Below are positions 6,087 through 20,724 of a stretch of DNA of 41,415 bases, in pieces. The DNA is taken from positions 1-41,415 of the forward strand of contig DASZGZ010000043.1 of assembly GCA_035938355.1 (NCBI GenBank), in the 5' to 3' direction. A program made the translations under genes and the position numbers. Under the pieces are notes generated by a model. That model did not search any database and had not been told where the DNA came from. It saw only the letters and a list, made by a program, of their open reading frames with translations. How positions within the stretch are numbered: position 1 is the first letter of the stretch; each line of letters opens with the position of its first letter. The stretch is from Acidobacteriaceae bacterium. Its GTDB lineage: Bacteria; Acidobacteriota; Terriglobia; Terriglobales; Acidobacteriaceae.

Positions 6087-6896
6087 TTATTTCTGTGCAG
6101 GAGCGGAATGTTGTGCAGGCGCCGGGGTGAGCACCGCATCGCCACCTTCAGCATTGACCGCACCATCTGCAAATTTCTTGTGCAGCTGGTGATGCAGGCA
6201 GTAGAGTGCCAGTTCGAGGCGGTCCGAGACGCCGAGCTTGTCATAGATCTTGCGCAGATAATTCTTGATGACTTGCTCAGTCGTACCCAACTGGTAGGCA
6301 ATCTCTTTGTTGCGTTTGCCCTGCGTGATGCAGGTGATGATCGCCATCTCCTTGGGCGAGAGACGGGGCTGGCTCTTGGGACTGGTTAGTGCGGTAGCCT
6401 GAGAGCGGTAGGCCTCGATCACCCAGTTGACCGACTGGTTGTCAATCCAGGTTTCTCCCTGTGCGATCTTACGAACGCATTTAACCAGCAGATCCGGCGA
6501 GATGGACCGCGGAATGATGCCACGTACGCCACGGCGATAGAGTTCGACCGTATTCTGCTCGTCGGTAGAAACGGCCTGAATAATGATCTTGACCTGCGGA
6601 TTGCGCCGCACGATTGCGGGGATAGCATCCGTGGTACCCGAGATGAGTCCGCCTTCGAGGATTACCAGATCGGTTGGAAACCTCTGAATCGCCGCTTCCA
6701 GGTTCTGGAGGTTATCGACCTGTGCAACTACCCGAATGTCATCTTCCAGCGCAAAGATCTTACGCATGCCGACGCGATAGATCGCCTGGGAATCCGCAAG
6801 AATAATGCGGACGATGTTCGGTTCGGTCGATGTGGTGGGCTCGACCGGATCGTCGGGAATGGTCTCGTCAAGCATGTCAGGCTTGGCTGCGCTCAT
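6087..6896 (-). CDS. NarL/LuxR-family response regulator with atypical receiver domain
   Basis: REC-like N-domain plus LuxR HTH (LSPKEMAII..GKRNKEIAYQLGTTEQVIKNYLRKIYDKLGV). The phospho-Asp position reads DLVILE. Confidence 0.9.
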   Translation of the reverse strand: MSAAKPDMLDETIPDDPVEPTTSTEPNIVRIILADSQAIYRVGMRKIFALEDDIRVVAQVDNLQNLEAAIQRFPTDLVILEGGLISGTTDAIPAIVRRNPQVKIIIQAVSTDEQNTVELYRRGVRGIIPRSISPDLLVKCVRKIAQGETWIDNQSVNWVIEAYRSQATALTSPKSQPRLSPKEMAIITCITQGKRNKEIAYQLGTTEQVIKNYLRKIYDKLGVSDRLELALYCLHHQLHKKFADGAVNAEGGDAVLTPAPAQHSAPAQK

Positions 6897-6904
6897 AATG
6901 AATT

Positions 6905-7243
6905 CTACTGACTGAAGTAATATTCGTCGATAACCGCTGCGGCACTCCAGCAGGTGTCACTGGTGTTGCAGCGTACCACACGGCCAGTGCAGTGAACCAC
7001 AACGTCTGTCGGGGTCCCCATGGCCTCTGCCGGCATCTTCATTGTAAAGCGTACCTGCGTCTGAACTTCGAGTGGTCGGGGAAGAGTAAATGCGACTCCT
7101 GTTGCGGAGATATTCTCCGTCATGGCCGCGATCTCACCAGCCGCGGTAAAGAGTCGCAGAGGGATCTGAAGCGGAAAGCGAACGGCATTTCTCAGCTCAA
7201 CTGGGGCATCCGCTCGTGCCTGTGCCGAGAGTGCGGGGGTCAT
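6905..7243 (-). CDS. Stand-alone PilZ-domain protein
   Basis: RxxxR (RNAVR) and (D/N)xSxxG (NISATG) c-di-GMP motifs; 112 aa. Confidence 0.85.
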   Translation of the reverse strand: MTPALSAQARADAPVELRNAVRFPLQIPLRLFTAAGEIAAMTENISATGVAFTLPRPLEVQTQVRFTMKMPAEAMGTPTDVVVHCTGRVVRCNTSDTCWSAAAVIDEYYFSQ

Positions 7244-7537
7244 GGGGCCACTATAAGTGCAAGGCGCGGACTAGGCCCATCCCACGAAGAGAGTAGCGAA
7301 ACACCCTGCTGGAGAGGCACTACGACGGGCACATGTGACTCTTTCACTCTATTGGGGTCGAAATAGATAACGACACTACCCGGCGCGAAATGAATAACTT
7401 GGTACGTCGGTAATATTACCATTCTCTCCAACGCTAAATTCCACCAAAGTTGTAGCAAGGCCAGGCAACCTCGGCTAAGGTTCGGAATACGTAGGCGATA
7501 CGCCACGTGCAGTACAGACCCTTGGGAGGCCCTTCCT

Positions 7538-7852
7538 ATGAAGCTGCTGTCAGTCGCAGCCTTGTCCGCCGTTCTGGTAGTACCGTGCTTTGCTAACGCG
7601 AAAGTATCGGCCGGAAGTCCGAACTTGCCTTTTCCGCGTGACCTCGGCAAATCCGTTGCGATGGGCAGCCCGAATCTGCCGTTTCCTCGCGACCTCGGCA
7701 GATCTGTCGCGAGTGGCAGCCCCAACCTGCCCTTCCCTCGTGACCTCGGCAAATCCGTCGCGAGTGGCAGCCCGAATCTGCCCTTCCCTCGTGACCTCGG
7801 AAGGTCTTTCAGTCCCAATCTTCCTTTCCCGCGCGATCTCGGAAAGTCCTAG
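7538..7852 (+). CDS. Secreted multi-copy peptide precursor (5x SPNLPFPRDLG[K/R]S)
   Basis: GGGAGG RBS at 7524-7529; Sec-type signal MKLLSVAALSAVLVVPCFANA; repeat cores differ almost only at synonymous sites. Confidence 0.88.
   Translation: MKLLSVAALSAVLVVPCFANAKVSAGSPNLPFPRDLGKSVAMGSPNLPFPRDLGRSVASGSPNLPFPRDLGKSVASGSPNLPFPRDLGRSFSPNLPFPRDLGKS
7613..7849 (+). repeat. Coding tandem repeat, 51-nt period (last linker shortened), 5 copies
   Basis: CC(G/C)AA(C/T)(C/T)TNCCNTT(T/C)CCNCG(T/C)GA(C/T)CTCGG recurs five times in frame. Confidence 0.95.
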
Positions 7853-7938
7853 TTTCTGACAAGCACTGACACCTTCGAATAATCGAAGAATCAGTTCACT
7901 GTAGCGTATGCTCTTCGATGGGATGAAATCGGAGAGCA

Positions 7939-8730
7939 ATGCGCTTTTTGACCGTTGATTCCGTAGGTTTTGCGGTAGGCCTGCTCCTGCAGGCGGCGCT
8001 GTGTTTGGTCATCTTCCGCAAACGACTAGCGCGTCTCTATCCGATCTTTGTCCTTTATCTCCTGCTGAATTTGATTGAGGATCCACTCGGCTGGTTTTTG
8101 CGCGGCCATGTGAGTGCGTATCGTCACTTCTACTTCATCGTCACCATTCTTGATTACGTCCTTCAGCTCCTGATCATCTTCGAGATTGGTCAGAACGTGG
8201 TGCGCCCCTCGAGGCGTTCCATCCACTTTCCAATCCTGCCGATTGCCACTGTCGCCGTCTTGCTGTGCGCTATCGTTGCGGCGAGCTTTTCGCGTCAGGT
8301 TCAGGCCGGTGGAACCGAACACCTAGTTCAGGTATCCATGCAGGTAACCCTTGGATTGGCGATTCTCAAACTTTTGGTCTTTGCAGCACTGGCAGGTTTT
8401 GCACAGGTTTTAGGCATTGGATGGAAGAGCCATGTGCTCCAGCTTGCCACCGGCTTGGCGTTTTATGCCGGGGCGTCTCTGCTTATACAGATCAGTTCAA
8501 GTCACCTAGCGACAGGGGACAGGGCATCCTATATTGCTCATCTTGTTAGACTTTCGCAGATTCAGTCTGCCGCCTACAACTTCACTTTGGCATTCTGGAT
8601 CTGGGCTTTTTCCCGAAATGAATCACCACGCAAAGATTTCACTCCACAAATGCAAGAAGTTCTGGTAACAATAGCTGAGTCAGCCAAACGTACTCGTTTA
8701 TCTGTTACCCGGAGCAATGAACGCAGATGA
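7939..8730 (+). CDS. Hypothetical ~7-TM integral membrane protein (candidate peptide receptor)
   Basis: 263 aa with seven hydrophobic segments and a ~38-aa hydrophilic C-tail; GGAGAG RBS; no recognisable enzyme motif. Function is inference. Confidence 0.8.
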   Translation: MRFLTVDSVGFAVGLLLQAALCLVIFRKRLARLYPIFVLYLLLNLIEDPLGWFLRGHVSAYRHFYFIVTILDYVLQLLIIFEIGQNVVRPSRRSIHFPILPIATVAVLLCAIVAASFSRQVQAGGTEHLVQVSMQVTLGLAILKLLVFAALAGFAQVLGIGWKSHVLQLATGLAFYAGASLLIQISSSHLATGDRASYIAHLVRLSQIQSAAYNFTLAFWIWAFSRNESPRKDFTPQMQEVLVTIAESAKRTRLSVTRSNERR

Positions 8731-9248
8731 CGTTCTCACTATTCCAGATACTGCTCGCCGTGGCCCTCCTCGCATTTGTGGGAGTGTGGCGTCGTCAGCA
8801 GGCAAAGCGGAAACAGCGCAGCTGGGATGAGATTGTTGCGGCGCTTCGGGCAAATGACTGGGGCCTGGACGAAGTCTCTGAACGGTATCTCTATCGCGGC
8901 GGCATCAAAGCGACCCCTGCCGACATATGGAAGAGAATCGATGGCGCACGCGGCTTGTGGGCGATGTACTGCAACGCTCCGCTGCTGGTGCAGCTTGCGG
9001 ATTATGCCGCCGAGCATGGCACCGATCCAGACGAAGCTCTCTTAGAGGGCCTGCGCAGCGATGCCTTCCAGATCCGCCTATGCGTGCTGATGGCGCTCAT
9101 TAAATACGCTATGTCCCACTCGACAATCGGCGCGTCCGTCAATGCACACCGTGCGACGGCTCTCTACAGCGAGATGCTGGCACACCTGACGACGCTCTTC
9201 CAGGAAAGTGCCGGCCAACTCTTCCCCAAATATCTGGAAGCAATGTAA
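8727..9248 (+). CDS. Hypothetical membrane-anchored protein
   Basis: 173 aa; N-terminal TM followed by WRRQQAKRKQR; ATGA overlap with the 7-TM gene. Confidence 0.8.
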   Translation: MTFSLFQILLAVALLAFVGVWRRQQAKRKQRSWDEIVAALRANDWGLDEVSERYLYRGGIKATPADIWKRIDGARGLWAMYCNAPLLVQLADYAAEHGTDPDEALLEGLRSDAFQIRLCVLMALIKYAMSHSTIGASVNAHRATALYSEMLAHLTTLFQESAGQLFPKYLEAM

Positions 9249-9264
9249 TCCCTCCTCCGGAATC

Positions 9265-9304
9265 AAGTGAAAAGAGCCTGCCGAAACGGCAGGCTCTTTC
9301 ACTT
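9265..9304. terminator. Bidirectional intrinsic terminator
   Basis: AAAGAGCCTGCCG-AAA-CGGCAGGCTCTTT hairpin between convergent genes. Confidence 0.9.
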
Positions 9305-9324: not shown

Positions 9325-10308
9325 TCAGCCGAGCGTCTTCTCCGCGAAGCTGCGCAGCTCCTGGTACTCGCTCTCGCTCAATGTGAACGATGCGGCGGAA
9401 AACGTGCCGTCTACCTGATCCGGCCGCCGCGCACCGACGATCGCAGCCGTCACAGCAGGATGGTGCAACGTGTAGGCCACCGCCACAACCCCGGGCTCGA
9501 CTCCGTGCTTTTTGCCGATGATGCGAAGCTGTTCCACCAGCGCCAGGTTTTTCTCGAGCCTCGGAGCATTGAAATCTGCACTCCTGCGCCGCCAGTCATC
9601 CGGCGGCAGCTTCTGGATGCGCTCCGGAGTCATTTTTCCCGAGAGCAGGCCGGATGCCATGGGCGAGTAGTTGATGACGCCGACCCCGTGTTTCTGGCAC
9701 CACGGCAGGATCTCAGCTTCGACCTCACGACGGATGATCGAATAGGGCGGCTGTAGAGAGGTGATCGGGGCGATCTTCGCGGCGCGCTCCATCTGCGCGA
9801 CGTTGAAGTTGGAGACGCCGATATAACGGACCTTGCCTTCCTGCTTCAGCAGGGCCATGGTTTCCCAGCCCTCTTCGATCTCCCCTACCGGATCCGGCCA
9901 GTGGATCTGGTAGAGGTCGATGACATCGAGCTTGAGCCGCCACAGCGATGCCTCAATTTCCTCACGCACCGAAGCTGCTTTCAGGCTCCGGTAGATCTTG
10001 CGATCGCGGTCCCAACGCATGGAAGATTTGGTGAAGACATAGGGCTTGTGCGGTGACTGTTTCAGAGCACGTGCGACCACATCTTCCGAGTGGCCGAGGC
10101 CGTAGATGGCTGCGGTGTCGATCCAGTTGAGGCCGAGATCCAGAGCGCGTTCGATCGCGGCGACCGAATCTGCATCTTCCTGGTGGCCCCACGCGAACTG
10201 CCAGTCGCCGCCACCGATCGCCCAGGCGCCAAAACCGATGCGGGTGATGTGCATGTCTGAGTTACCGAGTTGACGAGTGGCGAGATGCGCTGCAATTGAG
10301 GAAGCCAT
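9325..10308 (-). CDS. Aldo/keto reductase
   Basis: IGFGAWAIGG, WIDTAAIYG, IDLYQIHWPD, IGVSNF and SLQPPYS motifs. Start placed at ATG 10308. Confidence 0.92.
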   Translation of the reverse strand: MASSIAAHLATRQLGNSDMHITRIGFGAWAIGGGDWQFAWGHQEDADSVAAIERALDLGLNWIDTAAIYGLGHSEDVVARALKQSPHKPYVFTKSSMRWDRDRKIYRSLKAASVREEIEASLWRLKLDVIDLYQIHWPDPVGEIEEGWETMALLKQEGKVRYIGVSNFNVAQMERAAKIAPITSLQPPYSIIRREVEAEILPWCQKHGVGVINYSPMASGLLSGKMTPERIQKLPPDDWRRRSADFNAPRLEKNLALVEQLRIIGKKHGVEPGVVAVAYTLHHPAVTAAIVGARRPDQVDGTFSAASFTLSESEYQELRSFAEKTLG

Positions 10309-16484: not shown

Positions 16485-17273
16485 ATGTCCCCGGCGAAGG
16501 TCATAAGCGAACAGGAAATCGAGCGGCTCGAAGAGGATTCGCTCTCTCCTTCTGCGCGCAAGATGCGCATGCTGAAGAAGCTGCACTGCGGACTGCGCTA
16601 TGAAAAACAGGCGCGCGCTGCGGGGGCAGTGATGGTGGCCGGCGTGGACGAGGTCGGTCGCGGTGCATTGTTTGGGCCGGTAGTCGCGGCCGCGGTCATC
16701 CTTCCGCCGGAATGTCGCATTCGCGGGCTGCGCGATTCCAAACAACTGGAGCGCGAGGATCGCGAACGCCTGGCGAAGGTGGTCGAGACACGCGCCATCT
16801 GCTTCGCCATCGAAGAAGTGGACGCGGAGACGATCGACCGCGTGAACATCTACCAGGCGTCGAAGCTGGCGATGCTGGGCGCCGTGGCGCGACTGATGCC
16901 TGCCGCAGACCATCTGCTGATCGACGCCATGCGCCTCGATCTGCCATGCGCGCAAACCAGCATTATCTATGGCGACTCCCTCTCCATTTCCATTGCCGCT
17001 GCTTCAGTGGTCGCCAAGGTCTACCGCGACCGGCGCATGTGCGAATACCACGAGCAATGGCCGCAGTACGGATTGCACTCGCACAAGGGGTATTCCACAC
17101 CGGAGCACAAGCGCGCGCTGGCCGAGCATGGCCCTACGCCGCTTCACCGCTTCAGCTTCCGTCCCGTCGCACAGCGTTCCCTACCCTGGGATTATCCGAC
17201 CGCGATCGATAGCTTTCTTGAAGGAGAACAGCTTGTCCCTACGCCTGATGTGCGTGACGGCACACCCGGATGA
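16485..17273 (+). CDS. rnhB: Ribonuclease HII
   Basis: AGVDEVGRGALFGPVVAAAV, LRDSKQL, SIAAASVVAKVYRD and HKGY. Confidence 0.96.
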   Translation: MSPAKVISEQEIERLEEDSLSPSARKMRMLKKLHCGLRYEKQARAAGAVMVAGVDEVGRGALFGPVVAAAVILPPECRIRGLRDSKQLEREDRERLAKVVETRAICFAIEEVDAETIDRVNIYQASKLAMLGAVARLMPAADHLLIDAMRLDLPCAQTSIIYGDSLSISIAAASVVAKVYRDRRMCEYHEQWPQYGLHSHKGYSTPEHKRALAEHGPTPLHRFSFRPVAQRSLPWDYPTAIDSFLEGEQLVPTPDVRDGTPG

Positions 17274-17988
17274 TGAGAGCGGCGGTTTCGGCGGCGCGCT
17301 GCTGATGGCGCACGCCCGCGGCGCCGACACAACGGTGATCTGCCTGACCGAAGGCCGTGCAGCATCCAATCGCGGCGACGCCCGCAGTGATGATGAGCTT
17401 GCGGCTGCGCGTATCGCGGAGTTGGAGATCTCCTGCGGCATTTTGGGAGTGACCCGCTATGAAGTCTGGAAATATCCGGACGGGGCGCTGATCCAATCCG
17501 ACCTCTCTGAGGTCACCACCCGGCTGGTGGAGCGCATGCGGCAACTTCGCCCGCATATTGTGCTCACCTTCGGAGGCGATGGGGGTCCAAATTTGCATCG
17601 CGACCACGCGGTTGCGAGCTTTGCGGCGACGGCTGCCTTTCACTGGAGCGGCCGCACCAACTTCGCGCAGCAGCAGCTGAAGAACGGTCTCGCCCTATGG
17701 GCACCGCAAAAGCTCTATTACGCGTCTACGAACTTTACGATTTCGAAATTCAAGGAGGAGGCCGCCGTGGCGCCGCGCACTCCGGCATCCATCAAACTGG
17801 AACTCGGGCCGCTCCAGGAAGTAAAGCGGCAGGCCATCGAGGCGCACGACACGCAGAGCGTCATGAGCCGCGCAGCCGAGGCGTATGAGAAGTACGGACA
17901 TGAGGAGCGCTATCTGCTGGCTTCCGCGCGGCACCCAGAACGGTTTCAGCATGAGACCGACCTCTTCGCCGGCATCGAAGAGGTTTAA
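17233..17988 (+). CDS. PIG-L/LmbE-family deacetylase
   Basis: AHPDDE and HRDH metal motifs. TTG start at 17233 with AAGGAG RBS, overlapping the rnhB end. Confidence 0.88.
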   Translation: MSLRLMCVTAHPDDESGGFGGALLMAHARGADTTVICLTEGRAASNRGDARSDDELAAARIAELEISCGILGVTRYEVWKYPDGALIQSDLSEVTTRLVERMRQLRPHIVLTFGGDGGPNLHRDHAVASFAATAAFHWSGRTNFAQQQLKNGLALWAPQKLYYASTNFTISKFKEEAAVAPRTPASIKLELGPLQEVKRQAIEAHDTQSVMSRAAEAYEKYGHEERYLLASARHPERFQHETDLFAGIEEV

Positions 17989-19755: not shown

Positions 19756-20724
19756 TCAGAAGTTCTTCTTAAGATCCATTCCCTTGTAAAGGCTCGCAAC
19801 CTGGTCGCCATATCCGTTGAACATGAGAGTGGGCTGGCGCTGCTTGAAGAGCGAAGCGCCGATGCGCCGTTCCGTCTTCTGACTCCAACGCGGGTGATCG
19901 ACATTCGGATTCACGTTTGAGTAGAACCCATATTCGTTCGACGCCATCATGTTCCAGGTGGTCGGCGGCTGCTTGTCAGTGAAGTGAACGCGCACGATGC
20001 TCTTGGCTGATTTGAAGCCATACTTCCACGGCACGATCACACGCACCGGCGCCCCGTCTTGGTTCGGCAATGTCTCCCCGTAGAGGCCGAAGGTGAGCAA
20101 GGTGAGTGGATGCATTGCCTCATCCATGCGCAGTCCTTCAGAGTAAGGAAAGTGAATTCCCGACTCATTGATCTCGGGCATCTGCTTCTGGTCTGCCAGC
20201 GAGAGGAACTGAACGTATTTCGCGCCCGGCTGTGGGTCGCACTGTTTGATGAACTCAGAGAGCGAATATCCGGCCCACGGAATCACCATGCTCCATCCCT
20301 CGACGCAACGGAAGCGATAGACGCGCTCCTCCAGCGGCCTCAGCTTTAACAGCGTATCGATGTCGACTGTCTTTTTGTTCTTCGCCAGGCCAGTCACCTG
20401 AACCGTCCATGGGCGCGTATGCATGGCGCCCGCATTGCGCGCAGGATCGCCTTTATCTGTGCCGAATTCGTAGAAGTTGTTGTAGTGGGTGATGTCCTGA
20501 TACGAGGTCGGCGTCTCTCCTTTTAGAGAAAGCGCGCTCTTGACTGTCTGAAGCTTCTCCGCCGCATGCGCAGTGCCGGGAGAGACCCAACGGGTGATGC
20601 GCTCCGCCCCCAGCGCCGCCACCCCAACAGCCGCCATGCCGGTCATGAATGTGCGCCGGTTCAGGTAATCAGCCCTCGGAGTAATCTCTGATGCGGGAAT
20701 GTCGGGGGCCTTACGGATCAGCAT
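19756..20724 (-). CDS. msrP: Methionine sulfoxide reductase molybdo-catalytic subunit
   Basis: Tat motif NRRTF; [23 protein letters not shown] and [12 protein letters not shown]. Confidence 0.96.

Follow-up and report, generated by a model that had tools for sequence, protein, structure and literature searches.

Peptide signals that are encoded next to their receptors are known from several organisms. In Bacillus, the Rap-Phr and NprR-NprX systems of the RRNPP family have a short signal-peptide open reading frame (ORF) beside the receptor gene, and the sections of PMC5199041 on these systems describe signals that are duplicated both inside a gene and by copying of the entire gene, diversify fast, are exchanged horizontally as cognate pairs and occur as several paralogous systems per genome. 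Here, we describe a locus with the same traits in a 41,415-nucleotide (nt) stretch of DNA from an Acidobacteriaceae bacterium (assembly GCA_035938355.1, contig DASZGZ010000043.1), which we call the window. The locus encodes a predicted exported precursor with proline-rich repeats, a seven-helix membrane protein (TM7) and a membrane-anchored partner, and none of the three has a Pfam or NCBIfam match. It is real, and it belongs to a widespread, undescribed three-gene system; searches of the open literature turned up no account of such a system, nor any of cell-cell signalling of this kind for Acidobacteriota. Because precursor and TM7 change together between species, they are likely to be the peptide signal and the receptor of one bacterial system.

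Comparison with described systems

The resemblance to RRNPP has clear limits. The candidate receptor is a seven-helix membrane protein, whereas that of RRNPP is a cytoplasmic TPR protein, and precursors with several cores are the norm (61 of the 98 analysed, with 2 to 19 copies, the other 37 being single-core), while they are transient in the systems covered by those sections (PMC5199041). In addition, the host phylum is diderm and there is a dedicated membrane partner. The agr system of Staphylococcus and ComQXPA of Bacillus, as commonly described, also place a variable cassette of peptide and membrane sensor between conserved signalling genes, with an adjacent transcription regulator and candidate feedback promoter boxes. 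Unlike in agr, ComQXPA and Fsr, however, TM7 has no histidine-kinase domain, the regulator lacks the phosphorylated aspartate (phospho-Asp), there is no AgrB- or ComQ-like enzyme, and the precursor is of the Sec type with several cores.

Outside bacteria, yeast alpha-factor and the fungal repeat proteins processed by KEX2 combine a signal peptide with 1 to 16 near-identical repeats whose copy number varies between species, according to the corresponding passages of PMC6339444, and the MF-alpha/Ste2 pair shares with our locus the signal peptide, the near-identical tandem cores and, as a candidate here, the seven-transmembrane (7TM) receptor. The present system is instead bacterial and lacks the dibasic KR/RR and EA/DA processing signature given there (PMC6339444). 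Its receptor gene adjoins the precursor gene, and TM7 shows no detectable homology at the sequence level with G-protein-coupled receptors (GPCRs): a profile search of Protein Data Bank sequences returned one unrelated match (E = 1.2), and 1 of 145 TM7 homologues matches GPR180-TMEM145_TM at E = 5e-4. To our knowledge, bacteria have neither heterotrimeric G proteins nor arrestins. Nevertheless, GPCR-like 7TM folds are described in prokaryotes, including those that serve histidine kinases and diguanylate cyclases as sensor domains, and TM7 is predicted to resemble them in its seven-helix architecture; it differs from the sensor proteins treated in the main text of that source in standing alone, without an enzymatic output domain, and in being encoded with a candidate cognate peptide (PMC13581589). 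The string "Acidobacter" has 0 occurrences in that main text. Finally, insect apidaecin-type polyproteins, as generally known, also carry repeated proline-rich cores behind a signal peptide, whereas the cores here are not cationic and are accompanied by a co-varying membrane protein and a conserved cytoplasmic partner. The system thus falls outside the RRNPP, agr/ComQXPA and fungal alpha-pheromone classes as they are defined, having no TPR receptor, kinase, phospho-Asp, processing enzyme, dibasic sites or GPCR homology.

The precursor and its cores

The precursor ORF (7538-7852, plus strand, 104 amino acids, aa) begins with ATG behind a Shine-Dalgarno-like GGGAGG (7524-7529, plus strand), which appears as GGAG(G/A) in 14 aligned loci. 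It encodes a predicted Sec signal peptide, a spacer and five identical proline-rich cores. An earlier sequence-only reading of the window had listed five SPNLPFPRDLG[K/R]S units, and these are all present, starting at aa 27, 44, 61, 78 and 92 (cores SPNLPFPRDLG at 7616-7648, 7667-7699, 7718-7750, 7769-7801 and 7811-7843, plus strand). The linkers are VAMG, VASG, VASG and F, and the repeat periods are 17, 17, 17 and 14 aa; only one residue precedes the last unit, and the protein ends in KS two residues after its core. Each linker between cores holds a single K or R. The reading had taken the mature protein to consist of cores and short linkers only, which is correct for the repeats but overlooks a KVSAG spacer before core 1. 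It had also placed the cleavage site at an AxA motif, A19-N-A21. Signal peptides, here and in the family, were judged by hydropathy, which is 1.5-3.0 over aa 1-20 and agrees with a hydrophobic N-terminus (predicted signal peptide aa 1-19, 7538-7594, plus strand, with an alternative cleavage at A21). Cleavage after A19 rather than A21 appears more likely, since A19 is retained by each of the 18 near relatives in which a precursor was called, while position 21 is A in 10, V in 3, S in 4 and P in 1, and since the core of one relative (L013) begins immediately after the equivalent of A19.

The 33-nt core has 11 variable columns, 10 at third positions and 1 at the first position of Leu, and all the codon variants previously named are found (Ser AGT/AGC, Asn AAC/AAT, Leu TTG/CTG/CTT, Pro CCT/CCG/CCC, Arg CGT/CGC). 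These amount to at least 12 changes among the copies with zero residue changes, at a mean proportion of synonymous differences (pS) of 0.72, and the probability that 12 random substitutions would all be synonymous is 4e-8 to 1.5e-6 (kappa 1-8). The proposal of purifying selection on the core at the protein level is thus well founded. The wider idea of the sequence-only reading, a polyprotein cut into several identical bioactive peptides, has partial support, with cleavage and activity as its putative parts. The core is also confined to this gene, as all 5 matches to PNLPFP in the 3.07-Mb genome lie inside the precursor. Linker lengths vary within 16 of the 54 precursors that have more than two copies. 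Other loci have 2-4 tandem gene copies (L052 with four, L087 with three, and L085, L145 and L149 with two each) or a single core in place of internal repeats. The varying linkers and these alternatives give indirect support to the view that the copies provide dosage rather than a fixed structural period.

The reading had suggested a search for signal-peptide and proline-rich small ORFs upstream of 7TM homologues, and such a family does exist: an ORF with a signal peptide and repeats or a short proline motif precedes 85 of 106 TM7 loci, compared with 11 of 600 control ORFs, under a calling rule that was set after examples had been seen. Core sequences vary between species; X-Pro stands near the start in 58 of the 61 repeated blocks (Ser-Pro in 27). 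No basic site is common to the precursor family, in which dibasic KR/RR/KK with XA/XP spacers before the cores were not found, and the amidation at Gly-Lys/Arg considered previously does not extend to the family, given that G-K/R is absent from that place in 6 of 18 near-clade cores (L005, L009, L013, L014, L016 and L019).

Several variants of the precursor were also observed. At the orthologous locus in L024-L036, it is shrunken to 32-38 aa, without a proline-rich repeat, and consists of a signal peptide, Ser-Pro or Gly-Pro and a short hydrophobic helix. A two-Cys proline-rich motif, possibly forming a disulfide ring, ends the precursors of L142-L146, L149, L150, L152, L137 and L138, and in L145 and L149 these are two tandem genes each. 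In L090, L099-L101, L104, L108-L110, L114 and L117, which make up a subfamily whose cores are of the GT[DN]P[DEQV]P type, the locus adjoins a gene for a 245-aa XRE-type (HTH_31) protein, and in L151 an XRE-type-like gene precedes the precursor. Frame breaks within the repeats or TM7 in long-contig metagenome-assembled genomes (L001, L010, L020, L021 and L022) are probably sequencing errors, the alternative being repeat slippage.

Co-variation of the precursor and TM7

TM7 (7939-8730, plus strand, 263 aa) is the candidate receptor, predicted from the positive-inside rule to have its N-terminus outside and its C-terminus inside, with a predicted GPCR-like fold. Its outer half is variable and its C-terminal tail (aa 226-263) nearly invariant. 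Across 18 orthologous loci, pS is alike for all genes (0.43-0.64), whereas the proportion of nonsynonymous differences (pN) is 0.235 for TM7 versus 0.051, 0.034 and 0.027 for the other genes; within TM7, it is 0.337 in the outer half, 0.156 in the inner half and 0.060 in the tail. Core distance tracks that of the TM7 outer half in 17 loci (rho = 0.605, p = 0.0005) but not that of the flanking genes (rho = 0.149, p = 0.17), and the partial correlations with the outer half are still 0.60 and 0.56. Three clades have good support from the flanking genes, but TM7 rejects them (approximately unbiased test, p = 4e-4, 6e-7 and 8e-33). In five such pairs, pS is 0.23-0.39 for the divergent regulator gene described below and 0.07-0.14 for the TM7 tail, and reaches 0.70-0.76 for TM7 aa 1-225, and the cores differ. 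Thus, synonymous distances and tree tests show that the precursor and TM7 aa 1-225 behave as one cassette, the alleles of which either greatly exceed the conserved flanking genes in age or have been exchanged between them. The co-variation shows that diversifying pressure acts on a cognate pair, but it does not speak to contact.

The partner (8727-9248, plus strand, 173 aa) has one predicted N-terminal membrane helix and a predicted cytoplasmic helical bundle. Its start overlaps the TM7 stop (ATGA), it is fused to TM7 in P0251/P0270 and P0259, and it lies behind TM7 in 108 of 113 loci (98 of 103 when loci found through the partner are excluded). A profile of the partner gave no match in the 23 most distant loci. 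No Pfam or NCBIfam family recurs among 145 TM7 or 97 partner homologues, and no TPR family occurs among the former. TM7 itself has no kinase domain in Pfam or NCBIfam, and kinase fusions were not found among proteins of 500-2000 aa, which is weak evidence. The predicted model of TM7 aligns with the membrane part of a 696-aa HATPase_c/GAF cluster at TM 0.63 over 194 residues, a comparison between two predicted models that is below the bar for naming a family.

Distribution and presence in RNA libraries

Within the same family, 295 of 376 genomes match the TM7 profile, a tally that includes one unpublished genome (G594), with up to 6 matches per genome; in the one further family that was sampled within the order, 0 of 24 genomes do. 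With a broader profile, 31 of 301 genomes from the phylum as a whole have a match (22 of 24 within the family, 8 outside), and there are 1,376 TM7 clusters at 50% identity (E <= 0.001). The genome of the window, which is 68% complete, has four TM7 paralogues. Of the three further ones, that on contig C175 (L053, L125) is accompanied by a partner gene and a single-core precursor of 48 aa, that on C238 (L126) has an 82-aa two-core precursor, and that on C393 (L127) has a longer tail, and no precursor was seen with it. In one genus (L073, L074, L077, L082, L040 and L115), at least two TM7 genes, tandem or divergent, lie behind one precursor, an arrangement that would suit the retention of a second receptor for a different signal. 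No precursor was seen directly upstream of TM7 in a subfamily whose conserved tail is long (L136, L139-L141), which raises the question of orphan receptors.

Part of positions 6900-9300 is held by 24 soil metatranscriptomes from 24 studies, and half or more of it by six. Contigs from six runs cover the precursor gene, in line with the interpretation of the sequence-only reading; they bridge the precursor and TM7 in X1 and X2, and TM7 and the partner in X2 and X3, all of which denotes presence in RNA libraries and says nothing on strand, level or single transcripts.

Proposed mechanism and alternatives

We consider it rather probable that the proline-rich peptides act as a species-specific signal that is read by the adjacent TM7 and relayed via the membrane-anchored partner rather than a kinase. 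The locus would be transcribed, as the RNA contigs suggest, and the precursor would be exported by Sec and cut after A19. Periplasmic proteases may then cut the linkers and free single cores, whose trimming would stop at the N-terminal Ser-Pro, as suggested by the X-Pro starts and by relatives whose first core lies at the signal cleavage site. The five copies would raise the peptide dose per transcript, a role to which the tandem-gene and single-core alternatives point. The core peptide could bind an outward pocket of TM7, given the co-variation, and the relay might use TM7's invariant cytoplasmic tail together with the partner, given their conservation, the gene overlap and the natural fusions. 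The weakest step is the output, which may lie at the divergent operon for PilZ and LuxR-type pseudo-receiver proteins, with feedback through a shared promoter box. Allele exchange would give species- or strain-specific channels. More tentatively, there may be a phylum-wide, kinase-free cell-cell language of Acidobacteriota, made of neuropeptide-like polyproteins, stand-alone GPCR-fold receptors, a helical partner and transcription factors, in which pherotype cassettes are exchanged for kin recognition.

Purifying selection would also be expected for an uncleaved repeat protein, and the co-variation statistics are inflated by linkage and shared ancestry. An alternative that we think unlikely is a periplasmic precursor that remains whole, or tethered to the membrane, as a multivalent, self-made ligand of TM7; the system would then inform the cell about its own envelope (export, outer-membrane leak, proteolysis) and not about neighbours. 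The hydrophobic C-terminal tail of 32 of the 37 single-core precursors fits this explanation, and the linkage, fold and co-variation results fit it equally well. So does the neighbourhood of 76 loci (30 representatives Pfam-scanned), where the recurring genes are housekeeping or metabolic and there is no dedicated protease, exporter, processing or modifying enzyme. These neighbours also include no tailoring enzyme or RiPP recognition element protein of the kind that clusters with multi-core precursors of ribosomally synthesised and post-translationally modified peptides (RiPPs). However, self-sensing gives no obvious reason for diversification between close relatives or for exchanged alleles between invariant flanks, and the variable linkers (16 of 54) together with the tandem whole-gene copies point to dose, not geometry.

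Far less probable is that the cores are proline-rich antimicrobial peptides from an apidaecin-like polyprotein, with TM7 as the cognate immunity protein. The repeat layout does recall the pre-pro-polyproteins of insects, and fast-evolving adjacent pairs are regarded as typical of bacteriocin-immunity loci. Nevertheless, the core of the window has net charge 0, with one Arg and one Asp, and many cores of the family are neutral or acidic (for example, the GTDPEPQ types) instead of cationic and Arg/Pro-rich. The highly conserved TM7 tail and partner (pN 0.06 and 0.05) would be needless for an immunity protein, and the locus has a fixed chromosomal place beside rpsP-rimM-trmD-rplS in 31-32 of 76 loci, with no match in plasmid or phage collections. 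Least likely of all, TM7 could act on its own precursor as an AgrB- or exosortase-like membrane enzyme or exporter, by processing, modifying or anchoring it. This would also explain the co-variation, and it fits the adjacency of the genes and the lack of another processing enzyme nearby, but the 145 homologues have no invariant column, the seven nearly invariant residues (P35, E82, P90, F148, W162, G172 and W220) are mostly on the inner side and include no Cys, His or Ser, the fold matches of the predicted model are receptors, and no enzyme family recurs.

If the proposed signalling is true, the locus would be a bacterial pair of a GPCR-fold protein and a peptide ligand that the cell encodes itself, and it would offer a way to study how peptide-sensing 7TM receptors originated. 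In soil, Acidobacteriota rank among the most abundant bacteria, and a candidate ligand is written next to every receptor gene in the form of a short, unmodified peptide that can be synthesised; therefore, ligand-receptor specificity, density sensing and kin discrimination become directly testable in this phylum. Hundreds of natural peptide-7TM pairs also bear on whether peptide binding by the GPCR fold predates eukaryotes or arose twice.

The divergent regulator operon and other features of the window

Divergent from the precursor, across a 294-nt intergenic region, lies a gene for a single-domain PilZ protein (6905-7243, minus strand) with the RxxxR and [DN]xSxxG c-di-GMP motifs, both of which are kept in 36 of 36 distinct homologues. 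It is followed by a NarL/LuxR-family regulator with a pseudo-receiver domain (6087-6896, minus strand), in which, compared with NarL, the acidic pair DD is DS, the phospho-Asp is Glu and the Lys is Arg; Glu replaces the phospho-Asp in 29 of 34 distinct homologues, and the other 5 were unparsed. The pair adjoins the trio in only 34-36 of 76 loci, and ten others have an XRE-type gene. Two conserved copies of a CCAC-N7-GTAG imperfect palindrome, candidate activator boxes, lie on the PilZ side (7282-7296) and ahead of the precursor (7441-7455), the second 20 nt upstream of a -10-like TAAGGT (7476-7481). A common activator and feedback may act at these boxes. A perfect 12-bp palindrome, GGTAATATTACC (7409-7420), has a core conserved in the near clade. 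On the minus strand, an invariant -10-like TATAGT (7250-7255) stands seven bases before the PilZ start codon, which suggests a leaderless PilZ transcript.

Elsewhere in the window, a DUF3011 protein with internal repeats is encoded at the contig start (123-662). Single low-depth RNA contigs with short sides skip 69-123 nt at 9810-9901, 19824-19948 and 20337-20459, and they probably come from other organisms. At 16485-17988, an RNase HII-like ORF overlaps a long ORF for a PIG-L-type deacetylase, both families being assigned from homologues, and the true start of the latter is probably internal.
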